Source: a virus | Taxonomy: Duplodnaviria; Heunggongvirae; Uroviricota; Caudoviricetes | Length of the DNA: 14,165 nt | Strand: one strand, 5' to 3' | IMG/VR virus record: IMGVR_UViG_2551306525_000004 | Location: 1-14,165 of that record | In this document: one piece after another, positions 1 through 14,165 of the stretch | How the letters are laid out: each line of letters begins with the position of its first letter | Position numbering within the stretch: position 1 is the first letter of the stretch | Translations under genes and position numbers: made by a program | The notes under the pieces: generated by a model | Told to the model about the DNA's origin: nothing | Seen by the model: the letters and a program-made list of their open reading frames with translations, nothing else | Databases searched by the model: none

Positions 1-138
1 TTTGTGTTGCCTTTGTGCAGAAAGCATCACGACGAGCTGCATGCGGATACCGTGGCATTTGAAGAGAAGTATGGCTCCCAGCTGGAGCTGATATTTCGTT
101 TTATCGATCGTGCGCTGGCAATTGGCGTGCTGGCCTGA
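1..138 (+). CDS. 3' end of an unidentified phage gene (partial, runs off the window start)
   Basis: Open frame from position 1 to TGA at 136-138 (...EEKYGSQLELIFRFIDRALAIGVLA*), immediately upstream of Q in the nin-region position. No family recognised. Confidence 0.4.
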   Translation, partial: FVLPLCRKHHDELHADTVAFEEKYGSQLELIFRFIDRALAIGVLA

Positions 139-155
139 TTTTGTGGAGAAAGTTG

Positions 156-533
156 ATGCGTGATATTCAAATGGTTCTGGATCGTTGGGGAGCATGGGCG
201 GCGAGTGATAGTTCAGGAGTAGACTATTCTCCTATAGCTGCTGGGTTTAAAGGGCTTCTTCCCTATACAAGCAAAACACGTCAGGCATGTTCAGATAGTG
301 ATGCATTAATTATTGAAGGTTGTCTTGCTCGTCTAAGGCAAAAAAGGCCGGACGAACATTCGCTTCTTGTTGCCCATTACCTATACGGTATCTCTAAAAG
401 AAAGCTCGCCAAGGCTCGTAAAAAGGATGAGAAACTAATACGCATTGAGATACAGATGGCTGAGGGGTTTATTGATGGCTGCCTATCGATGCTGGAAATT
501 AGTCTAGAGATGGACCCCGAAATTAAAGATTGA
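156..533 (+). CDS. Q: Late-gene antiterminator Q (short QuuD-like Q family)
   Basis: ATG at 156 preceded by GGAG (145-148); frame is open from TTG 141. Product MRDIQMVLDRWGAWAA... resembles the ~125-130-aa Q antiterminators of E. coli lambdoid prophages as I recall them, and it sits upstream of the lysis module. Confidence 0.8.
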   Translation: MRDIQMVLDRWGAWAASDSSGVDYSPIAAGFKGLLPYTSKTRQACSDSDALIIEGCLARLRQKRPDEHSLLVAHYLYGISKRKLAKARKKDEKLIRIEIQMAEGFIDGCLSMLEISLEMDPEIKD

Positions 534-539
534 TTATTG

Positions 540-564
540 AAGCCCGATTACTCGGGCTTTTGTT
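540..564 (+). terminator. Intrinsic terminator-like hairpin between convergent Q and the antisense gene
   Basis: Stem aagcccg (540-546) / cgggctt (553-559), loop attact, followed by T-rich tract. The stop codon of the minus-strand gene (548-550) lies inside the hairpin. Confidence 0.5.
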
Positions 565-1567
565 CCACATCTCGAACATAGAGAATTACTGCTGACTTAA
601 TGTCACCATCGACGTGTTTTGCGTTAATGCTCAAATGTACAGGCTTTCTTTCCCACTCAGCTCGCTGCAATGCTTCTTTGTTTCCGGATTCATCAAGGAA
701 AACATCCTGAACTACGCAGGTTAGACGTTGGTCGGTATCTACGCGTCGGACCTTAACTTTGAAACTCTCTGGGTCAGTATTATTGACTTCTTCAATTCGG
801 TAAATACCATCAATCCTCATTTCTGATGAACGTCTACGAGCATTCGTAACCAACTCTTTCGCCATTTCAGAATCAATAGTAACGCCATCAATTTGAGCGT
901 TATCTGAACGCACAAAGGATTTGACCATTTGGGTTTTAGCGTCATACGACATACGGTCCATGTTATCGAGAAGTGGTTTTTCCGCAATCATTTCTGAAAT
1001 AACCCGCAGGCGTTTAGTTTCTTGCTCGCTCATGATCTGCATAGTCCGGAGATGTTCTTTCTCTCCATCCTTAGCAATTTCTGCAAGGCGAATATCTTTA
1101 CGGTTGTCCAAGAACCGTTTAAATACTGTTACTCCGCCCCAGATGACTGCTGCGCCGAGAACAGTAAACATGATCTCAGTTGCGTTCATTTTACCAACAA
1201 GTTCCTGTGTGAGTTTGGTTAAAAAGCCATCAATGTTGATTTCTACTATTGAAGAACCCTGTTCTACCGTAACTTCTATTTCTAGGGCATCAAGTTCTTC
1301 TTTGGTCAGTTTGCGGACGTCAGGGACACCGTACTTGGCAAGGGCATATGATTTGTTGATTTGAGCTTGCATTTCAACAAATCCCTTCATAACTGAAGGT
1401 GTTAGCGATCTGTTGAATTTTTCACCGGTTAATCTGATGGTAAGGTTTGGCCATCCGTTGAAACTTAAACTGTCAGGTAAACCATAACCATCAAGATAGC
1501 TTTCAAGCAAATCGAAGGCTTGCTGCTCAGATTCAATGTCTACATGAATCTCATCAAACTTATCCAA
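548..1567 (-). CDS. Hypothetical membrane-anchored protein, 339 aa, unknown function (moron; candidate exclusion/defence factor)
   Basis: Long ORF with TTG start at 1567 preceded by GAGGA at 7-nt spacing. One central hydrophobic helix (EIMFTVLGAAVIWGGVTVF) followed by a K/R-rich stretch. AT-rich by eye and antisense to all flanking phage genes. Confidence 0.75.
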   Translation of the reverse strand: MDKFDEIHVDIESEQQAFDLLESYLDGYGLPDSLSFNGWPNLTIRLTGEKFNRSLTPSVMKGFVEMQAQINKSYALAKYGVPDVRKLTKEELDALEIEVTVEQGSSIVEINIDGFLTKLTQELVGKMNATEIMFTVLGAAVIWGGVTVFKRFLDNRKDIRLAEIAKDGEKEHLRTMQIMSEQETKRLRVISEMIAEKPLLDNMDRMSYDAKTQMVKSFVRSDNAQIDGVTIDSEMAKELVTNARRRSSEMRIDGIYRIEEVNNTDPESFKVKVRRVDTDQRLTCVVQDVFLDESGNKEALQRAEWERKPVHLSINAKHVDGDIKSAVILYVRDVEQKPE

Positions 1568-1862
1568 AAATATGTCCTCATTCTAAGCCAACTGTCACCG
1601 TGAGGTTTGGCAACGCCTGCTTTATTTTTCGTTTTAAGCTGTGTGGCAAAAAAATAATGGAAAAACAGATAAAAATCACTAACGCGGTCCGCATTTTCTA
1701 GATTACTGTGTTAAGAGTGGTTACTTCGCCACACAACTTAAACCCGCCGCTGAGCGGTTTTTTTGTACCTGTAAACTTGGTGCAGCACAGTAAACACGCT
1801 GGTGGTCGTGAATACTGACTTTTTATCTTGCTGGCTTTTTAGACAAGAGTTATTGGTATGTC
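1568..1862. promoter_or_regulatory. Divergent intergenic control region between the antisense gene and the HTH-ORF/methylase unit
   Basis: About 300 bp of AT-rich non-coding DNA between divergently oriented genes. Contains a weak hairpin followed by T7 (about 1747-1766). No confident -35/-10 assignment. Confidence 0.3.
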
Positions 1863-1886
1863 ATGTTAACCAGAAGGGAAAAAGAC

Positions 1887-2090
1887 ATGCTAAAACAGCA
1901 AGATATGACAGAAACCGCCGCCGCAGTCCTTCATTTCTTACCTGCTGACAAGTGGGTAACGCCACGCATGATGACGAGAACTACCGGAGTAAGCGAAGCC
2001 CGGTGCCAGTTAATACTGACTCAGTTAGTTCTGGCGGGTCTGGCGAAGGATAACGGCGGGTACGGGAATAAATTCAGACGCTGCCAGTAA
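1887..2090 (+). CDS. Small hypothetical protein, possibly HTH/winged-helix-like
   Basis: ORF is open from ATG 1863, but ATG 1887 has a better SD (AAGGGA, 7-nt spacing). About 68 aa; the segment TPRMMTRTTGVSEARCQLILTQL looks HTH-like. Lies directly upstream of the methylase. Confidence 0.45.
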   Translation: MLKQQDMTETAAAVLHFLPADKWVTPRMMTRTTGVSEARCQLILTQLVLAGLAKDNGGYGNKFRRCQ

Positions 2091-2209
2091 TGGCGGTTTC
2101 CTGCTGTGAAAATGGGCGGCTGGTGGGTGTTGGTAGCACCTGCCAGCCATTCGCTCATGCTTACTGGTCACAAGCGAACCACGGCCCACTGCTTTAGCGC
2201 AAAAGCAGA

Positions 2210-3301
2210 GTGAGCCTACCAGAGTTACGCTTACTGATCCATGAAAATACTGTAAAAATAAACAGTGTTGATTTAATCAACGCTGATTGCCTGCATTTTA
2301 TTCAGTCCCTGCCTGATAACTCCATTGATCTGATTGTTACCGATCCGCCGTACTTCAAAGTGAAGCCCAACGGCTGGGACAATCAGTGGAAAGGGGACGA
2401 AGATTACCTGAAGTGGCTGGACCACTGTCTGGCCCAGTTCTGGCGGGTACTGAAACCAGCCGGAAGCCTTTACCTGTTCTGTGGGCATCGCCTGGCATCT
2501 GATATTGAGATCATGATGCGTGAACGTTTCAACGTGCTTAACCATATCATCTGGGCGAAGCCGTCCGGACGTTGGAATGGGTGTAATAAAGAAAGTCTGC
2601 GCGCATATTTTCCTGCCACAGAGCGCGTTCTGTTTGCTGAACATTACCAGGGGCCATATCGCGGCAAAAGTGACGGCTATGCGGCAAAAGAAAGGGAACT
2701 CAAACAGCACATAATGGCACCGCTGATATCGTATTTCAGGGATGCTCGTGCCGAACTGGGTATAACGGCAAAACAAATTGCCGAAGCCACAGGTAAGAAA
2801 AATATGGTTTCCCACTGGTTTGGTGCCAGTCAGTGGCAGTTGCCGAATGAGGCTGACTACCGGAAGTTACAGGCACTGTTTTCCCGTATAGCGGCAGAGA
2901 AGTTTCAGGAACAACAACTGGAACAACCACACCACCAGTTGGTGGCATCTTATGATTCACTGAATCGCAAATATTCTGAATTGCTGGATGAGTTTAAATC
3001 TCTCCGGCGCTATTTCTCCGTATCAGTCTCCGTGCCTTATACCGATGTCTGGATGCATAAACCCGTTCAGTTCTACCCGGGTAAACATCCGTGTGAGAAA
3101 CCGGCGGATATGCTCAGGCAAATAATCAATGCCAGTAGTCGACCCGGCGATCTGGTTGCTGATTTCTTTATGGGATCCGGTTCCACAATAAAAGCAGCAA
3201 TGGCGCTGGGGCGTCGGGCGTTAGGTGTTGAGCTTGAGACAGAGCGGTTTAATCAGACCATCCAGGAAATCAGTATGTTATCAGCAAATACAATTTTGTG
3301 A
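2210..3301 (+). CDS. Site-specific DNA adenine methyltransferase, beta-class (CcrM/HinfI/YhdJ-like)
   Basis: Motif IV DPPY near the N-terminus (IVTDPPYF) and motif I FxGxG near the C-terminus (DFFMGSGST), preceded by HPCEKP, typical of beta-class N6A methyltransferases. GTG start at 2210. A central insert contains an HTH-like stretch (ELGITAKQIAEATG). Confidence 0.85.
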   Translation: MSLPELRLLIHENTVKINSVDLINADCLHFIQSLPDNSIDLIVTDPPYFKVKPNGWDNQWKGDEDYLKWLDHCLAQFWRVLKPAGSLYLFCGHRLASDIEIMMRERFNVLNHIIWAKPSGRWNGCNKESLRAYFPATERVLFAEHYQGPYRGKSDGYAAKERELKQHIMAPLISYFRDARAELGITAKQIAEATGKKNMVSHWFGASQWQLPNEADYRKLQALFSRIAAEKFQEQQLEQPHHQLVASYDSLNRKYSELLDEFKSLRRYFSVSVSVPYTDVWMHKPVQFYPGKHPCEKPADMLRQIINASSRPGDLVADFFMGSGSTIKAAMALGRRALGVELETERFNQTIQEISMLSANTIL

Positions 3302-3310
3302 ATTAATTCA

Positions 3311-3346
3311 ATTATTGGTGGGATGTCTGTGCCGTATAATGATTAC
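3311..3346 (+). promoter_or_regulatory. Candidate sigma70 promoter (possible late promoter pR'-like)
   Basis: Perfect -10 hexamer TATAAT at 3335-3340 with a weak -35 (ttattg, 3312-3317). Downstream initial region has repeated -10-like TACAGA/TACAGT (3344-3355), which could act as a sigma-dependent pause element. Confidence 0.25.
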
Positions 3347-3544
3347 AGATACAGTGTATCCTGCAATGCAGCAGGGCTGATGTGGTGGGTTGTACATAGC
3401 CTGCAAAGGATTGGCTTCATTAATTCATCGTTGATACAAGCGAGTCACGGTTGACCACGCCAACGGCTCATCGGTAAAAATCCGACACCGTGTCTTCTTA
3501 ACTCACTTATTGTTTCCACCCATGTTTTTGGATACCTGCTGTAG

Positions 3545-3582
3545 CTGTCAGATTAGCGCGATAATCTGACAGTCTTTTTTTT
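3545..3582 (+). terminator. Strong rho-independent terminator
   Basis: 11-bp perfect stem ctgtcagatta / taatctgacag with a 6-nt loop, followed by T8 (3575-3582). Confidence 0.65.
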
Positions 3583-3870
3583 ACAACGAATCCTTCTGAT
3601 CTGCTTTTGCGGGGCTTTTTGTATCCGCTCCATGCCCGGCGTATAAGCGGAGGTTGGTCAGTTTTCTAAAAATTGAAATACCTCACAATTCAGCCAGTTA
3701 ATGGTTGTTTGTCTGGCGAAGAGTTTGTAAATAAAAAAACGCATGGTGAATCCCCCTAAGCGGCGGGGCGAATCAGCAGTCAGTTCTGGGATAATCGCGG
3801 GTTCGTATGCTGATGCCGGACTCACCGGGAGGCACCCGGCACCATGCATCATGGTCATCCCCTTGTATGA

Positions 3871-3896
3871 TACCCCTCTCCGGAGGGGTATTTTTT
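3871..3896 (+). terminator. Strong rho-independent terminator
   Basis: 8-bp GC-rich stem tacccctc / gaggggta with loop tccg, followed by T6 (3891-3896). Confidence 0.6.
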
Positions 3897-4328
3897 GGAT
3901 AAAAAAGCCCGCGCTGGGAGGCACGGGCGGCAAGGAATAAAACGTGAAGAAATTTTCACAGGCGCATAATAATCCGATGTTGCCAGATTTTGCAACTGCA
4001 TCATCTGGTTATTATGTGAGCTGGAAAATCAGATTCTGTATGGACTGAAGCCATGCTGTTATTTAGGGCCAAAGAGCTGGCTTTTTCCCGCCTTCTCTCC
4101 AGTAACGATTAATGAGAAAAGAATGAAATGCTTTTCCTGGGGAGGAGGGCAGTAGAAAAAAGAACCCGCCAGCAAAAATATGGGGGATGAACAGCTTTTG
4201 CTACTCAGGTTGCTGGCGGGTATGGTTCTTCATGAAATAAGAATGTTACGCGGTATTTTTAATGAAAATGATAATTATTGTCAATTGGTTGTGCGTATTT
4301 TTTCATACATGACTGGTAAAGGTGATTC

Positions 4329-4360
4329 AGGCCATCAGAGTTTTGCTGATGGCCTTTTTT
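4329..4360 (+). terminator. Rho-independent terminator immediately upstream of the holin (tR'-like)
   Basis: 10-bp stem aggccatcag / ctgatggcct with a 7-nt loop, followed by T6. Ends 34 nt before the holin ATG. Confidence 0.6.
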
Positions 4361-4393
4361 CTTTCCGGTAGCACAGGTCTGTTGGGGCGGGAT

Positions 4394-4609
4394 ATGTATC
4401 AGATGGAAAAAATATCAACAGGCATTGCCTACGGCACCTCCGCAGGCAGTGCTGGCTACTGGTTTTTACAATGGCTTGATCAGGTTAGTCCGTCTCAGTG
4501 GGCTGCGATTGGTGTACTGGGAAGTCTGGTTCTGGGCTTTCTGACTTATCTGACGAATCTGTACTTCAAAATCAGAGAAGACAGAAGAAAGGCTGCGAGA
4601 GGAGAGTAA
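4394..4609 (+). CDS. S: Class II holin (phage 21 S-like pinholin) with dual-start motif
   Basis: 71 aa beginning [31 protein letters not shown]..., recalled as matching S21 (SAR-type TMD1 plus TMD2). Met1/Met4 dual start is typical of holin/antiholin pairs. The upstream in-frame extension to 4322 was not used because it would span the terminator. Confidence 0.85.
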
Positions 4610-4613
4610 TATA

Positions 4614-4958
4614 ATGGTCCAAAACTATGAAATGATTGTGAAAGGGATCCGCAATTTTGAGAATAAAGTTACGGTAACTTTAGCATTACAGGACAAAGAA
4701 CGCTTTGACGGTGAAATTTTTGACCTGGACATCTCGCTGGACCGTGTTGAAGGTGCCGCGCTGGAGTTTTATGAGGCAGCAGCCAGAAGGAGCATCAGAC
4801 AGGTCTTCCTGGATGTTGCTGCCGGGTTATGTGGAGGGGATGAGCAGTCGCCGGAAAAGCGCCCCATAATTTTAGAGGCGCAGAGTGTGTGGATAACCTA
4901 CAAAGGAAAACTGCCGGGAAGAATTACTGGTTCACTGAAGACTCCGCCGAAATGGTAA
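4614..4958 (+). CDS. Hypothetical protein inserted between holin and endolysin (DUF1327/YdfR-like by position)
   Basis: ATG 4614 with SD GGAGAG at 7-nt spacing, 114 aa. It occupies the holin-endolysin slot that ydfR occupies in the Qin prophage as I recall; the family assignment is not verified. Confidence 0.55.
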   Translation: MVQNYEMIVKGIRNFENKVTVTLALQDKERFDGEIFDLDISLDRVEGAALEFYEAAARRSIRQVFLDVAAGLCGGDEQSPEKRPIILEAQSVWITYKGKLPGRITGSLKTPPKW

Positions 4959-5196
4959 TTTCACCAGCATATTTTTCCTCCAGTAATACCGCCAGCCACT
5001 TGAAAGAATTTTGTTGTTGCTGGGACCATTTGGGATTGATTGATTCAAGCTGGAGCGATGCCAGTGTTGGTTGCATTTGTTCCTTGGGAATTGAGAATGC
5101 CAGATATGAAAATGCGACAGTAAGGGCATTTACATCATCCCGAAGCCTGGAAATGCAGTCGAGCAACTCCTGTAGAGAAATGGTGCTATTGTCCAT
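4924..5196 (-). CDS. Hypothetical small protein (~90 aa), antisense within the lysis cassette
   Basis: ATG at 5196 (minus) preceded by AGAGAGGA at about 6-nt spacing; the frame extends to TTG 5202. Product looks helical and non-repetitive. The 3' end overlaps the convergent 4614-4958 gene by about 35 nt. AT-rich. Confidence 0.45.
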   Translation of the reverse strand: MDNSTISLQELLDCISRLRDDVNALTVAFSYLAFSIPKEQMQPTLASLQLESINPKWSQQQQNSFKWLAVLLEEKYAGEITISAESSVNQ

Positions 5197-5301
5197 AAAC
5201 AATCCTCTCTATTGTATTTAACTATTCCTTGCCTGATTCAACAGGCCGGGACAGATAAACATATCCAGGGTTCAGAAACCGATAAATCCTGATAAATATC
5301 C

Positions 5302-5835
5302 ATGAACGCAAAAATCAGATACGGCCTGTCGGCTGCCGTTCTGGCACTGATTGCCGTCGGTGCGCCTGCGCCTGATATTCTCGACCAGTTTCTGGATGAA
5401 AAAGAAGGTAACCACACAACGGCATACCGCGATGGTTCCGGCATCTGGACCATCTGTCGGGGTGCCACGGTGGTGGATGGAAAACCCGTTGTTCCCGGTA
5501 TGAAACTGTCGAAGGAAAAATGCGACCAGGTTAACGCCATTGAACGGGATAAGGCGCTGGCATGGGTGGAGCGCAATATTAAAGTGCCACTGACCGAACC
5601 ACAGAAAGCGGGTATCGCGTCATTTTGTCCCTATAACATTGGCCCCGGTAAGTGTTTCCCGTCGACGTTTTATAAGCGGCTGAATGCCGGTGATCGTAAA
5701 GGTGCATGCGAGGCGATTCGCTGGTGGATAAAAGATGGTGGGCGCGATTGCCGCATACGTTCAAATAACTGCTATGGACAGGTTATTCGTCGTGACCAGG
5801 AAAGCGCATTAGCCTGTTGGGGGATAGATCAGTGA
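5302..5835 (+). CDS. R: SAR endolysin (phage lysozyme, T4L/R21-like)
   Basis: N-terminal Ala/Gly-rich SAR segment ([16 protein letters not shown]). Catalytic triad spacing E-x8-D-x5-T in [16 protein letters not shown]. 177 aa, followed by Rz. Confidence 0.85.
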
Positions 5836-6293
5836 GCAGAGTCGCCGCGATTATTTATGCTCTGGTTATCTGCATCATCGTCTGCCTGTCATGGGCTGTT
5901 AATCATTACCGTGATAACGCAATCGCCTACAAAGCCCTGCGCGACAAAAATGCCAGAGAACTGAAGCTGGCGAACGCGGCAATTACTGACATGCAGATGC
6001 GTCAGCGTGATGTTGCTGCGCTCGATGCAAAATACACGAAGGAGTTAGCTGATGCGAAAGCTGAAAATGATGCTCTGCGTGATGATGTTGCCGCTGGTCG
6101 TCGTCGGTTGCACATCAAAGCAGTCTGTCAGTCAGTGCGTGAAGCCACCACCGCCTCCGGCGTGGATAATGCAGCCTCCCCCCGACTGGCAGACACCGCT
6201 GAACGGGATTATTTCACCCTCAGAGAGAGGCTGATCACTATGCAAAAACAACTGGAAGGAACCCAGAAGTATATTAATGAGCAGTGCAGATAG
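5832..6293 (+). CDS. Rz: Spanin inner-membrane subunit Rz
   Basis: GTG 5832 overlaps the endolysin stop (GTGA). Product ...[30 protein letters not shown]... matches lambda Rz closely as I recall it. Confidence 0.85.
6052..6234 (+). CDS. Rz1: Spanin outer-membrane lipoprotein subunit Rz1 (embedded in Rz, +1 frame)
   Basis: 60 aa with lipobox LVVVGC and a proline-rich mature part ([15 protein letters not shown]), wholly inside Rz in another frame. Confidence 0.8.
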
Positions 6294-6324
6294 AGTTGCT
6301 CATATCGATGGGCAACTCATGCAA

Positions 6325-6618
6325 TTATTTTGAGCAATACACCCGCGCTTCCAGCGGAGTATAAATGCCAAAAGTGATGAAACCGAGCAATCCATTTACG
6401 AATGTTTGCTGGGTTTCTGTTTTAACCACATTTTCTGCACCACCACAAATTTTTGCTGCATCGACAGTTTTCTTCTGCCCAATTCCCGAAACGAAGAAAT
6501 GATGGGTGATGGTTTCCTTTGGTGTTACTGCTGTCGGTTTGTTTCCAACAGTAAACGTCTGTTGAGCACATCCTGTAATAAGCATTGCCAGAGCGGCAGA
6601 AAACAACATTTTTTTCAT
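6325..6618 (-). CDS. bor: Bor lipoprotein (serum-resistance/envelope lipoprotein)
   Basis: ATG at 6618 (minus) with AGGA SD. Product MKKMLFSAALAMLITGCAQQTFTV... with lipobox, close to lambda Bor as I recall it. Convergent with Rz/Rz1. Confidence 0.85.
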   Translation of the reverse strand: MKKMLFSAALAMLITGCAQQTFTVGNKPTAVTPKETITHHFFVSGIGQKKTVDAAKICGGAENVVKTETQQTFVNGLLGFITFGIYTPLEARVYCSK

Positions 6619-6816
6619 CTTATTATCCTGCATTGTTAAAAACGGCAGAATCCTATGTGACAACAATTAAACGATAGTTAAATGGATTGATGAAAATTAA
6701 AACTACACAGGTGAGCTCAGACGATTGGAGGGAGTTGGGGACACTCAGAATCCTGTAGAATGAAATAAACCGGTCTATCCGTCCATTACCCTTTTAGCTG
6801 CGCTGTATCGTCGCCG

Positions 6817-6881
6817 TATTCCCGCATTAACCATGACCGTAGCCCGACGGGGAATTCCTTCTGCGTGAGTGTGCGGGAATA
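6817..6881. repeat. 10-bp perfect inverted repeat flanking a 45-nt spacer in the bor-upstream non-coding region
   Basis: tattcccgca (6817-6826) and tgcgggaata (6872-6881) are exact reverse complements. Confidence 0.5.
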
Positions 6882-7098
6882 ATTAAAAACGATGCACACC
6901 GGGTTTTTACCGCGTTAATGATTCGCGGATTTATCCCGGTGCGATGGTGGAAGAAACCGGAAGCTGTATTACAGAAAGTGCTACTACTGTATCCCGATGC
7001 GATGTATGTAATGTGAGTCAGATAATGGCACAGGATGTGGTGATGTGGCAGTCTGGAACACAGGATATATTGTCAGAATAAGACCCGTAGGAATAAAA

Positions 7099-7425
7099 AT
7101 GAAAAGACGCCTTTTACTACTTTTTCTGTTATCTGTCCTAGCAGTGGGATGCTCGCAGCAAAAAGCTGATGAGCCCCGGCAATTAGTGACGGTGTATCCA
7201 CGATATCCGGAATATGCTGCAGCAAATTATATCAAGGGGCTGGTTGAGGTTAAGTTCGATATTGGTGCTGATGGGACTGTGACACGGATCGTTTTTCTCC
7301 GCTCAGAGCCTCATAATTTGTTTCGTGATGAAGTGGTGAAGGCCATGGCGAAATGGCGATTTGAAAAGAATCGTCCCTGTCAGGGAGTGAAGAGACAATT
7401 TATCTTTACGCCGTCACGTCCCTGA
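7099..7425 (+). CDS. Lipoprotein with a TonB C-terminal-like domain (moron)
   Basis: ATG 7099 with AGGA SD. Signal peptide plus lipobox (MKRRLLLLFLLSVLAVGCSQQ). Mature part YPRYPEYAAANYIKGLVEVKFDIGADGTVTRIVFLRSEPHNLFRDEVVKAMAKWRFE aligns well with the TonB C-terminal domain as I recall it (YPARAQALRIEGQVKVKFDV...FEREVKNAMRRWRYE). Confidence 0.7.
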   Translation: MKRRLLLLFLLSVLAVGCSQQKADEPRQLVTVYPRYPEYAAANYIKGLVEVKFDIGADGTVTRIVFLRSEPHNLFRDEVVKAMAKWRFEKNRPCQGVKRQFIFTPSRP

Positions 7426-7517
7426 TGCTTCCAGGTAGAGAGGGGCTGGAAGCAGGAGAAAAATGAAAGAGCCAGCGGTTATATTTTTGTCATGGCTGAC
7501 GAGGAATGATGGAAGAA

Positions 7518-7540
7518 GGCGTTGTATGCCACACAACGCC
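7518..7540 (-). terminator. Hairpin 8 nt downstream of the 7548-7727 gene (possible bidirectional terminator)
   Basis: Stem ggcgttgt / acaacgcc with a 7-nt loop. T-rich flanks on both strands but no clean U-tract. Confidence 0.35.
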
Positions 7541-7547
7541 TCACTGT

Positions 7548-7727
7548 TCATTTCTTCTTTTTCTCTAGTGGAACCCGATGAATAAGAGTTGCACTGGTTT
7601 CCGATGAGATGGCGATATACTCGGGCAAAGTATGCTGGCAGTTTTCCAACTGGTCAAAAATACCTGCTCTCGTCTGTTGCAATGCCTGCAGCATGCGGCG
7701 GCAATGCGCCTTGCTTTTGCTAACCAT
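7548..7727 (-). CDS. Hypothetical small protein (59 aa)
   Basis: ATG at 7727 (minus) preceded by a strong SD AGGAAGGA at 4-nt spacing. The longer 117-aa frame overlaps the upstream gene, so the shorter start is preferred. Confidence 0.45.
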   Translation of the reverse strand: MVSKSKAHCRRMLQALQQTRAGIFDQLENCQHTLPEYIAISSETSATLIHRVPLEKKKK

Positions 7728-7788
7728 CTTTCCTTCCTCTATCAGTCGCTGCGTGAACTCATCATGGAATACCAGGTAAATGCGGATG

Positions 7789-8040
7789 TTATCGGTTTTG
7801 GCTACGCAGCATAGTACAAAACGGACAGGTGCATCCCGGGACGGGGGAGGCGTCACATGTCCCTGTGATGGTTGTTCCGGGTAATGCACTGTGTGGGGCA
7901 TAAAAATGTCCGATAATTTTACTTTCTACCGCAGTTAGTTGATTCGTTGGTCCTGGTAGCACATTGGGCGAGGATTTAAATGCCAGGCAACTGAAGGATG
8001 ATGTTGCAAGGGAGATAGCGAGAATATTTCTGATTTTCAT
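7789..8040 (-). CDS. Hypothetical small secreted Cys-containing protein (83 aa)
   Basis: ATG at 8040 (minus) with AGAGG SD. N-terminal signal-peptide-like segment MKIRNILAISLATSSFSCLA. Mature part carries 5 Cys (CDASPVPGCTCPFC). Confidence 0.45.
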   Translation of the reverse strand: MKIRNILAISLATSSFSCLAFKSSPNVLPGPTNQLTAVESKIIGHFYAPHSALPGTTITGTCDASPVPGCTCPFCTMLRSQNR

Positions 8041-8149
8041 TTGATGATGCCTCTGTGTGAAATGACGGTAAACGACGCACTTGTGCCGGCACATAATAGC
8101 AAGCACCATAATAGATCAGATTCGATTCTTGCTGTAAGTGATAATTATT

Positions 8150-8378
8150 CTCGTTTTTCGGGTCCTTTCCGGCGATCCAACAGGCTACGGGGCGGCGACC
8201 TCGCGGGTTTTCGCTATTTATGAAAATTTTCCGGTTTAAGGCGTTTCCGTTCTTCTTCGTCATAACTTAATGTTTTTATTTAAAATACCCTCTGAAAAGA
8301 AAGGAAACGACAGGTGCTGAAAGCGAGCTTTTTGGCCTCTGTCGTTTCCTTTCTCTGTTTTTGTCCGTGGAATGAACA
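8150..8378. other. cos: Lambda-type cos site (cosQ-cosN-cosB); cosN 12-nt cohesive end GGGCGGCGACCT at 8190-8201
   Basis: Sequence ...caggctacg|gggcggcgacct|cgcgggttttcgctatttatgaaaattttccgg... matches the lambda genome ends/cos as I recall them, and Nu1 starts 189 nt downstream. Confidence 0.85.
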
Positions 8379-8898
8379 ATGGAAGTCAACAAAAAGCAGC
8401 TGGCTGACATTTTCGGTGCGAGTATCCGTACCATTCAGAACTGGCAGGAACAGGGAATGCCCGTTCTGCGAGGCGGTGGCAAGGGTAATGAGGTGCTTTA
8501 TGACTCTGCCGCCGTCATAAAATGGTATGCCGAAAGGGATGCTGAAATTGAGAACGAAAAGCTGCGCCGGGAAGTTGAAGAACTGCGGCAGGCCAGCGAG
8601 ACAGATCTCCAGCCAGGGACTATTGAGTACGAACGCCATCGACTTACGCGTGCGCAGGCCGACGCACAGGAGCTGAAAAATGCCAGAGACTCCGCTGAAG
8701 TGGTGGAAACCGCATTCTGTACTTTCGTGCTGTCGCGGATCGCAGGTGAAATTGCCAGTATTCTCGACGGGATCCCCCTGTCGGTGCAGCGGCGTTTTCC
8801 GGAACTGGAAAACCGACATGTTGATTTCCTGAAACGGGATATCATCAAAGCCATGAACAAAGCAGCCGCGCTGGATGAACTGATACCGGGGTTGCTGA

Positions 8899-8924
<26 letters not shown>
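8379..8924 (+). CDS. nu1: Terminase small subunit Nu1
   Basis: 181 aa MEVNKKQLADIFGASIRTIQNWQEQGMPVLRGGGKGNEVLYDSAAVIKWYAERD..., nearly identical to lambda gpNu1 as I recall it. Confidence 0.95.
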
Positions 8925-12605
<3,681 letters not shown>

Positions 12606-12625
<20 letters not shown>

Positions 12626-12935
12626 TCTCCCGCATATTGCCAGCATGGCTTTTAATGAGCCGCTGATGCTTGAACCCGCCTATGCGCGGGTTTTCTTTTG
12701 TGCGCTTGCAGGCCAGCTTGGGATCAGCCGCCTGACGGATGCAGTATCCGGCGACAGCCTGACTGCCGGAGAGGCACCCGCGGCGCTGGCGTTATCCGGT
12801 GATGATGACGGACCACGACAGGCCCGCAGTTATCAGGTCATGAACGGCATCGCCGTGCTGCCGGTGTCCGGTACGCTGGTCAGCCGGACGCGGGCGCTGC
12901 AGCCGTATTCGGGAATATCTTCAGTCCCATACTGA
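12606..12935 (+). pseudogene. C: Truncated gene C (head protease/scaffold); only about 103 N-terminal codons of lambda-like sequence, then out-of-context sequence to a stop
   Basis: GTG 12606, product MTAELRNLPHIASMAFNEPLMLEPAYARVFFCALAGQLGIS...RALQPYSG matches the lambda gpC N-terminus (full length about 439 aa). Homology stops near 12916 and the frame ends at 12935. Confidence 0.8.
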
Positions 12936-12936
12936 T

Positions 12937-13071
12937 ATGCCCGGCAACGATGACCTGAAGGGCATTAACGTGAAATACCGTTATGAGTTTACGGACACGC
13001 TGGGGATGGTGACGTCATTCAGCTATGCAGAAGACAAGAATCGCCAGCTGACTCATTACAGCGATAGCCGT
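12937..13071 (+). pseudogene. lom: Internal fragment of a lom-like (Ail/Lom/PagC family) outer-membrane protein gene
   Basis: Translation PGNDDLKGINVKYRYEFTDTLGMVTSFSYAEDKNRQLTHYSD matches an internal segment of lambda Lom (VPGSDDLNGINVKYRYEFTDTLGLVTSFSYAGDKNRQLTRYSD) as I recall it. No signal peptide and no C-terminus. Confidence 0.6.
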
Positions 13072-13245
13072 TCTGACGGTACTCATCCCCGCGCCAATCT
13101 GGCGGGCAATGGTTTCAATCGATGGCCAGCACACACCTTCGTCATTACTGAAATCAGCCAGGCGGGCCATAATTGCCACGCTGGATAATTTCATGCCTGA
13201 CGCTGCGCAACCATCCCATACATAGCCGGTTAATTTAGTGCTCAT
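13015..13245 (-). pseudogene. Truncated HTH (HTH_36-like) replication/regulatory gene N-terminus, e14 ymfN-like
   Basis: First ~58 codons (MSTKLTGYVWDGCAASGMKLSSVAIMARLADFSNDEGVCWPSIETIARQIGAGMSTVR) look like the HTH N-terminus of phage replication-initiation proteins. The remaining 18 codons are antisense of the lom fragment, so the gene is cut at about 13071/13072. Confidence 0.5.
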
Positions 13246-13254
13246 GACCGACCT

Positions 13255-13593
13255 CTATTTCCCTGAATTTACGACGAAACTGTTCGAGCGGACTGAAGCA
13301 CTCATGCTCATAGCCTTCGCGGAGGTAGATAACCCGTTGTGTTTCCGGTTCCCAACGAATGACTCTGACGGGCACTCCGTAGTGATCTTTGAACCAGCGG
13401 TTAACTTGTCGCAAAGGACTGTCTCCTTCTGCCGGTTGAAATCCCCCACAGCCCACTCTGCAAAGCTGTGGGTTACAATTTCCCTGTCACCTGGTACATT
13501 CACTGCATAGCAATATTCCACCTTCGCTTTTCCACCCGGTACAGGAAGCGCAATCAGTTGCGAGCGACGGTAGTGTGTTGTTAAACTGTTCAT
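13255..13593 (-). CDS. Hypothetical protein, 112 aa (e14 ymfM-like by size and position)
   Basis: ATG 13593 overlaps the stop of the upstream gene (ATGA). The size and the 189-aa / 112-aa / HTH gene order match e14 ymfL-ymfM-ymfN as I recall. The C-terminal half is low-complexity and an alternative frame overlaps it. Confidence 0.45.
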
Positions 13594-14159
13594 GCGTTAG
13601 TTTCTCCACAACCAGAAGCAATCGACGCCACGACGCCCGGAGCTGCACACTCGCGGGCGTCATTACTTTCTGAAATGCAAAAGATTTTGTAGACCAGTGC
13701 TGCATGCTCCTGCAGCTTCGAAATTGAGAGATACAGCTCGTCGTTAATTGCTGTCTTCTCATGCGGTTCCACTACACCGTCTTCGATTGCTGAACGAATC
13801 TGTTTTGAATAACTGCCGATCTGTTCAATGACTTCCAGCAGACGCTGGTTAATATCGGCGTTGTCCACATCCTCGACGTCAGGAAGCGACACAAAGACGC
13901 CATTTGCAGACTGCGCCACAGCATCAGCAATGAAGTGAGTGCCACCAGCACGCTGTAAAACCATTGCCCATCCCAGCGGGAAAATCTGATCGCCATCTGC
14001 ACGAAGGCGGTTGAATAAAGCGTTTTCTGTTACATCGAGCCAGTCAGCCGCTTCAGCGTAACCACCCGGCAACGCCGCGATAGTTTTTCTGACAGCTTTC
14101 ACGTACCACTCAGGCTGTTTTTCTATTTTCCAGTGATGCTTACCCACGATTAGCCTCAT
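13590..14159 (-). CDS. Phage CII-like regulatory protein (CP76-type; e14 ymfL-like), 189 aa
   Basis: Full-length [61 protein letters not shown]...; the family assignment is from memory. Its promoter lies outside the window. Confidence 0.6.
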
Positions 14160-14165
14160 CGTTGT

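Follow-up and report, generated by a model that had tools for sequence, protein, structure and literature searches.

Diverged TonB C-terminal domains dedicated to particular partners are known from HasB, FusB and Vibrio TonB2, all of which keep the inner-membrane anchor and transduce energy; FusB, a TonB homologue, binds ferredoxin. A periplasmic TonB domain that is uncoupled from the inner membrane and over-produced in Escherichia coli inhibits iron import through TonB-dependent transporters (TBDTs), according to the account of Howard et al. (2001) given in PMC9841981. Also, phages encode small outer-membrane lipoproteins, Llp in T5 and Cor in phi80, N15 and T1, that act on the transporter FhuA from the periplasmic side and exclude phages, as described in a preprint. 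Here, a phage gene that would join these themes is analyzed. It lies in a stretch of 14,165 nucleotides from a virus of the Caudoviricetes (IMG/VR record IMGVR_UViG_2551306525_000004, positions 1 to 14,165), called the window in what follows, and occupies positions 7099-7425 of the + strand as an intact open reading frame (ORF) of 108 codons. Its product of 108 residues, with a mature part of 91, is a predicted lipoprotein built around a stand-alone TonB C-terminal domain (TonB_C), and it is 100% identical to CPT_21_73 of phage 21 ("TonB C-terminal domain protein") and to RefSeq WP_000830178.1 ("TonB family protein").

The C-terminal domain of E. coli TonB (residues ~153-239; PDB codes 1u07, 1xx3, 2gsk and 2grx) and the phage protein have the same fold, with two helices and three strands, and the latter keeps the YP motif, the aromatic core and the β3 strand that pairs with the TonB box. 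However, it has no N-terminal helix, proline-rich rod, ExbBD coupling or last strand; it is predicted to be lipid-anchored in the opposite (outer) membrane, and the equivalents of R158, Q160 and R166 are substituted. Unlike HasB, FusB and Vibrio TonB2, it cannot transduce energy. By mechanism, the closest system would be the engineered periplasmic TonB fragments, which are also uncoupled from the inner membrane, although, in the account of Howard et al. (2001) cited above, these are artificial, soluble and over-produced, whereas the phage protein is natural and predicted to be lipid-tethered. By biology, and drawing the likeness by analogy, the closest proteins are Llp and Cor. Nonetheless, these have neither sequence nor fold in common with the TonB_C lipoprotein: no match to the Cor family was obtained in Pfam and PHROGs, and the Llp entry (PDB code: 8A60) is not among the significant matches of the PDB fold search. 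Moreover, Llp is allosteric and specific for FhuA, whereas TonB boxes in general would be the target of a TonB_C decoy, and the genomic slot differs, with the TonB_C gene placed after the lysis genes and Llp and Cor near tail genes. Finally, Bor/Iss and the lambdoid morons are likewise small outer-membrane lipoprotein cargo in the low-GC stretch between Rz and cos, but the fold of Bor/Iss is unrelated, bor is transcribed opposite to the late operon whereas the TonB_C gene is co-oriented with it, and no recognizable promoter or terminator of its own was found in the E. coli version of the TonB_C gene.

Sequence and fold of the TonB C-terminal domain

The protein belongs to the TonB_C domain family. 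In profile searches, it matches Pfam PF03544 with an E value of 7e-13 (49.2 bits against a cut-off of 24.6) and TIGR01352 with 47.4 bits (cut-off 27.1), and the E. coli TonB chains in the PDB (1u07, 1xx3, 2gsk_B and 2grx_C) are recovered with E values of ~1e-14, a similarity far beyond chance. Residues 26-103 (7174..7407, + strand) align without gaps with residues 153-230 of E. coli TonB at 38-40% identity, and the final TonB strand (~234-239) has no counterpart. The homology begins at the equivalent of P153, the first ordered TonB residue in 2gsk_B, and spans the entire unit seen in transporter complexes and nothing beyond it. An earlier note on this DNA, made from the sequence alone, had proposed a TonB C-terminal domain along about 105 residues; the domain is confirmed, but about 80 of the 91 mature residues align.

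The YP motif and the aromatic core are kept, with Y36, P37, F53, G59, F75, W86 and F103 corresponding to Y163, P164, F180, G186, F202, W213 and F230 of TonB. Moreover, a comparison of 17 short relatives and TonB reveals that P153, P161, Y163, G174, V176, G186, P198, F202, W213 and P220 (TonB numbering) are invariant, while P164 and F230 are nearly so.

An AlphaFold2 model built on a 9-sequence alignment shows predicted local distance difference test (pLDDT) values above 94 over the whole domain and the order strand-helix-strand-strand-helix-strand. A comparison of this model with the PDB by Foldseek, in which the template modeling (TM) score was normalized by the target, gives TonB 1u07 as the top match, with a root mean square deviation (rmsd) of 1.3 Å. 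The model differs from TonB in the BtuB:TonB complex by an rmsd of 1.0 Å (TM 0.92) and from TonB in the FhuA:TonB complex by 0.9 Å, the range across 1u07, 2gsk_B and 2grx_C being 0.88-0.92 for the TM score and 0.9-1.4 Å for the rmsd. The significant fold matches in the PDB correspond to TonB and TolA domains, with structures of the FusB C-terminal domain among the top ones, and a search of the BFVD viral structure library returned no significant structural neighbor. The profile search and the structure prediction, both suggested as checks in the earlier note, thus came out in favor of the domain.

Lipoprotein signal and absence of energy coupling

Translation would start at ATG 7099, the start used by RefSeq and by the annotators of phage 21, and ends at TGA 7423-7425. 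An AGGA ribosome-binding site read from the sequence lies 6 nt 5' of the ATG (7089..7092, + strand), at the same spot as in the phage 21 annotation, and a 13-nt indel directly 5' of this site distinguishes the two alleles of the gene that are described below. An alternative in-frame GTG start at 7045 would give a longer ORF.

The product reads MKRRLLLLFLLSVLAVGC, followed by SQQKADE and then by the domain, PRQLV...FIFTPSRP. Its N terminus matches a PROSITE-style lipobox pattern, in agreement with the LAVGC lipobox read in the earlier note. The signal peptide (residues 1-17; 7099..7149, + strand) has a KRR n-region and a Leu-rich h-region and is conserved between the two E. coli alleles and also in the relatives from Klebsiella and Salmonella; the lipobox L-A-V-G-C (7138..7152, + strand) ends in Cys18, which is predicted to carry the lipid and to be the first mature residue, and Ser19 comes next. 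A linker of seven residues (SQQKADE, residues 19-25; 7153..7173, + strand), with pLDDT values below 50 at residues 19-21, leads to the domain. Most short relatives have a lipobox with a residue other than Asp at +2, as do the two E. coli alleles and the Klebsiella- and Salmonella-type phage relatives (where +2 is Ser or Thr); among the relatives, this residue is Ser, Thr or Ala. According to the Lol sorting rule, lipoproteins with no Asp at +2 go to the outer membrane, and because the +2 residue is Ser19, sorting of the protein to the outer membrane is predicted. From these sequence features, we infer both its lipidation and its outer-membrane location.

On the other hand, an identity as a TonB energy transducer is ruled out. 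The best score against the NCBIfam TonB equivalogs (NF008080-NF008084) is 69.2 bits, far below the cut-off of 315, and the match is limited to the last ~85 positions of the models. The only hydrophobic segment is the cleavable lipoprotein signal peptide, so an N-terminal transmembrane anchor is absent, and the seven residues between Cys18 and the domain leave no proline-rich spacer, just as the earlier note had described. As a separate observation, phrog_34172, a family of 251 positions and of unknown function, is matched through its C-terminal 80 positions (E = 2.5e-15), which suggests that some phages may encode full-length TonB-like proteins.

Occurrence, alleles and selection

The gene was found in 1617 of 5426 complete E. 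coli genomes (~30%), with up to 4 copies per genome, strain CFT073 being one of the carriers. In all but five of these (1612/1617), at least 80% of the gene is covered by a match. Two alleles are distinguished: the first (at least 95% identity) is present in 1225 genomes, and the second, with ~73% DNA and 72% protein identity, in 392 genomes. The latter is typical of O157, O145, O111 and O121 strains and of Stx1a phages and is called here the allele of Shiga toxin-producing E. coli (STEC). Between both alleles dS is 1.37 and dN/dS is 0.13, decreasing to 0.11 over the domain alone. Because of this low dN/dS, the gene is considered to be maintained by purifying selection, and it is functional rather than decaying.

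Some phage records name the protein "partial tonB-like membrane protein" or "TonB fragment", which would correspond to a captured piece of tonB without function. The dN/dS of 0.13, measured with silent sites saturated between the two alleles, together with maintenance by selection, rules out this reading of the older annotations. Also, a lipoprotein signal peptide that TonB lacks has been acquired, the gene is intact in nearly all carrier genomes, and, as shown in the next section, the architecture is kept across genera. We therefore consider a functionless fragment very improbable.

Searches of the full-text literature did not bring up any study on the function of this protein or of another TonB_C lipoprotein from phages. 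The statement of the earlier note that no protein of this type had been characterized can be maintained in that sense, although the gene itself was already annotated (CPT_21_73, WP_000830178.1 and PHROG_1267). The gene and its domain are hence not new; what is unstudied in the literature found is the lipid-anchored, domain-only architecture and its fixed place in the late operon.

Relatives outside phages

A HMMER search over 1.84 billion representatives (E ≤ 0.001) returned 2795 matches of the TonB_C type, mostly ordinary or multi-domain TonB-like proteins. Among the best 150, however, about 20 are proteins of 100-135 residues that align from the signal peptide onwards, and the same architecture recurs in different genera (35-47% identity). 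When one genome per species was scanned, 14 such loci were located in Raoultella, Klebsiella, Serratia, Erwinia, Pantoea and Pseudescherichia. A panel of phage lysis and packaging proteins gave a match at just 1 of the 14, with an endolysin gene immediately 5'; the remaining loci were read from raw ORFs only. Several of the orphan relatives stand in ordinary chromosome, for example next to lacI/lacZ in Raoultella or within ycgN-dsbB-nhaB-fadR in Serratia grimesii, and at these orphan chromosomal loci neither a transporter nor an ExbBD gene is a conserved neighbor. The gene is also carried by Klebsiella plasmids. The architecture is therefore not a feature of prophages as such, a correction to the earlier note, since orphan relatives occur on Klebsiella plasmids and in the non-phage chromosome of Raoultella, Serratia, Pantoea, Erwinia and Pseudescherichia. 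These orphan genes, each encoding a lipoprotein signal plus TonB_C, have the appearance of a cellular family that has escaped study and that may be the source of the phage gene. One ORF beside the Raoultella copy resembles, by eye, a membrane protein of the YagU/DUF1440 type, and close to the copy in the Klebsiella phage there is an annotated DUF1440 gene.

In Klebsiella, plasmid pKP91 and a phage share only the gene and ~250 bp upstream of it, with the homology stopping at the stop codon. The upstream ~250 bp of this cassette keeps a promoter-like TCTACA-17-GATAAT site, a match that is within chance expectation. Taken together, the orphan chromosomal and plasmid copies and the moving Klebsiella cassette suggest a role in living cells and not only in lysis.

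Another reading is that the protein serves host physiology instead of acting against phages, with the tethered domain tuning one or a few TBDTs, or binding some other periplasmic partner, to the benefit of iron balance or envelope fitness. The orphan chromosomal and plasmid copies speak for it, as does the presence of the ferredoxin-binding TonB homologue FusB among the top fold matches. Moreover, sitABCD, a TonB-independent iron/manganese transporter, is found on the same element as the TonB_C gene in phage 21 (12968-15001 of its locus) and in the icd-site prophage of CFT073 (10141-13590), the latter also carrying iss and an OmpC-like porin. However, this linkage is not general: the prophage of strain 789 has no sit genes, and the list of SitA-bearing contigs shares only 1 of 80 with the IMG/VR contigs that carry the TonB_C gene. 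A module combining a TonB block with TonB-independent iron uptake was rejected as a general explanation on the same two grounds. Since a conserved transporter or ExbBD neighbor is lacking as well, a modulator of host physiology is regarded as unlikely.

Position in phage genomes and transcription

Positions 5830-8189 of the window and the right end of phage 21 have 98.3% identity. The cosN cohesive-end sequence GGGCGGCGACCT follows at 8190..8201 (+ strand), and phage 21 has a cosQ annotation close by. Therefore, the TonB_C gene belongs to the cargo stretch between Rz and cos, and ~0.8 kb separates it from the right end of the packaged genome. The outer-membrane lipoprotein gene iss/bor is at 6325..6618 on the − strand, so the location between bor and cos given in the earlier note is correct; only about half of the related loci have iss/bor. 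The GC content is 0.40-0.49 over 6200-8300 and 0.51-0.55 in the lysis and packaging genes, a difference of the kind expected of morons.

Upstream, the lysis genes (5302..6293) comprise an endolysin (5302-5835, + strand), the Rz i-spanin (5832-6293, + strand) and, embedded in Rz, the Rz1 o-spanin (6052-6234, + strand); they define a conserved slot, and a complete spanin pair is already present in them. In the E. coli clade (80 IMG/VR loci), the loci with flanks recovered show the order endolysin, Rz/Rz1, TonB_C, and then Nu1 and TerL, with bor/iss, where present (about half of the cases), lying before TonB_C on the other strand; in a few of them an HNH gene follows TonB_C instead. The Klebsiella- and Salmonella-type clades add 44 further loci, with 36-99% identity to the Klebsiella-clade query. 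A recognizable lysis gene lies upstream in 42 of these 44, and in 42/42 the TonB_C gene is on the same strand and downstream of it. The slot holds across three endolysin types, whereas the packaging module 3' of TonB_C varies between lambda Nu1/A and an HNH gene with a P27-type small terminase. Because the co-orientation is constant, the gene would be transcribed at least with the late operon, that is, late in lytic growth, and expression in the lysogen is possible. No Fur box was seen by eye near the E. coli gene, and a lone GATAAT hexamer is common to both alleles.

Such a position could point to a late-phase envelope protein, one that binds peptidoglycan or an outer-membrane protein and assists or times lysis. 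The protein matches PHROG_1267, labelled "Rz-like spanin", over its full length (E = 5e-43); it follows the lysis cassette directly on the late strand in most of the 124 phage loci with a recognizable upstream flank, whatever the endolysin type; there is no terminator between the gene and the late transcript, and an association of the TonB C terminus with peptidoglycan has been proposed in the literature. Nonetheless, a complete and separate i-spanin/o-spanin pair exists in the window, in the Salmonella locus and in the Klebsiella phage, and the protein is compact and globular, as a TonB_C domain, instead of short and proline-rich like an o-spanin; it also lacks the C-terminal transmembrane segment that a u-spanin would have. 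On both grounds the spanin label was rejected. In many loci iss/bor separates the TonB_C gene from Rz, and no lysis genes surround the relatives on plasmids and chromosomes, so a role in lysis seems quite unlikely. The members of PHROG_1267 that were examined are TonB_C lipoproteins beside complete spanin pairs, and the label itself looks like a propagated annotation error.

Other features of the region do not appear to belong to the gene. A conserved non-coding element at 6795..6975 (~180 nt, no strand assigned) has higher identity between the alleles than the coding sequence. However, it was discarded as part of the unit of the TonB_C gene because it is generic lambdoid DNA, found in 4578 of 5426 E. 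coli genomes (84%), at up to 11 places per genome and at 695 places on plasmids. This element, which was never annotated and whose surrounding 306 nt give a fold z-score of −1.9, may be the upstream regulatory region of bor/iss or an element of the late transcript. The small ORF at 6944-7081 (+ strand, 45 codons), annotated as CPT_21_72 in phage 21, is probably not a gene, because its reading frame is not conserved in the STEC allele, where its first ~10 codons alone are kept before indels and an earlier stop. Downstream, the ORFs at 7548-7898 (− strand) and 7632-7811 (+ strand) overlap on opposite strands and match phrog_4843 (1.3e-44) and phrog_3744 (2e-45), respectively, both of unknown function; it is likely that at most one of them is real, and RefSeq and phage 21 annotate that on the + strand. 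Further away, a strong match to the small RNA STnc100 (Rfam RF02076; 114.5 bits, gathering score 47) is located 5' of the holin gene, at 3712-3900 (+ strand). As for phage 21 itself, the C-terminal part of its J protein resembles the J of long-tailed Stx phages.

A possible decoy for TonB boxes

The mechanism that we consider best supported, tentatively and at somewhat less than even chances, is that of a decoy, already put forward in the earlier note, in which the lipoprotein would bind TonB boxes without delivering energy. The TonB_C domain would be held by its 7-residue linker beneath the outer membrane, directly under the TBDTs. Since membrane anchor, proline-rich rod and ExbB/ExbD coupling are all missing, transmission of energy would be impossible. 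The domain would occupy the TonB boxes of FhuA, BtuB, FepA, Cir and other TBDTs by strand pairing of the TonB type, with the edge of β3 permanently free as a result of the missing last strand. A domain that cannot deliver energy would therefore compete with the host TonB, and phages (T1- and phi80-like, H8), group B colicins, microcins and siderophore-linked compounds would enter less by the TonB-dependent route. In its broadest form, as a mobile lock in which the tethered docking domain competes at every TonB box and gives broad, receptor-independent protection, this proposal is rather doubtful.

Several features speak for the decoy, among them the fold seen in the transporter complexes, the homology that begins at the P153 equivalent, the invariant residues, the kept lipobox, the purifying selection, the likeness to Llp and Cor, and the orphan copies and moving Klebsiella cassette. 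The xPxYP segment (TonB 160-164) is tied to the TonB box by suppressor genetics and disulfide crosslinking, and Q160L is the classical functional suppressor allele of TonB; the equivalent of Q160 is Tyr in the window protein and Leu in the STEC allele. Moreover, the last TonB strand (~234-239), which the phage protein does not have, lies beside β3 in free TonB and is disordered in the complexes; the chain lengths of 1u07, 1xx3, 2gsk_B and 2grx_C are consistent with this. As to the effect of an uncoupled domain, the inhibition of iron import by over-produced periplasmic TonB serves as an experimental precedent for the decoy; such over-production is said to have protected also against phi80 and colicin M, and in later work TonB fragments of at least ~86 residues were reportedly inhibitory.

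However, a number of observations weigh against the decoy. The TonB residues R158, Q160 and R166 contact FhuA and BtuB, and in the alignment their equivalents in the phage 21-type protein are substituted by T, Y and Y. In the window, no consensus sigma-70 promoter or terminator is present on the + strand around the E. coli gene, and without a promoter and terminator of its own the protein may be made only late in lytic growth, when exclusion would be worth little. None of the PADLOC defense models matches the lipoprotein. Carriers such as CFT073 rely on working TonB-dependent siderophore uptake and, to our knowledge, no exclusion of phi80 or T1 by phage 21 lysogens has ever been reported. This makes it unlikely that lysogens are strongly and constitutively blocked, and either expression would be late-only or conditional, or the effect would be partial or selective. 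Finally, TBDTs greatly outnumber TonB, and therefore a decoy directed at the transporters needs a high copy number.

The same outcome could be achieved with far fewer copies if the tethered domain paired with the C-terminal domain of the host TonB and parked it at the outer membrane, TonB being much scarcer than the TBDTs. TonB C-terminal fragments dimerize in crystals, the best fold match (1u07) has two chains in its entry, and the lack of the last strand leaves the β3 edge of the phage protein free. Nonetheless, the physiological relevance of TonB C-terminal dimers is disputed and the proposal is purely inferential, so sequestration of TonB is judged improbable.

Implications

Many phages, colicins, microcins and siderophore-conjugated antibiotics enter the cell through TBDTs, which also have a central role in iron acquisition and virulence. 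If the decoy proposal is true, a mobile gene that dampens all TBDTs at once would represent a new exclusion principle, acting on energy coupling, whereas Cor and Llp each disable one receptor. In this case, the uptake of siderophore-linked antibiotics would possibly be lower in carriers. Because the gene is present in phage 21, CFT073 and many STEC, it could help to explain differences between strains in susceptibility to phages, colicins and siderophore drugs. If the decoy proposal is wrong, the protein would still be a widespread and conserved envelope protein in important pathogens. In the TonB_C lipoprotein, very common E. coli prophages offer a well-defined candidate for a new way of controlling transport or of exclusion at the receptor level.

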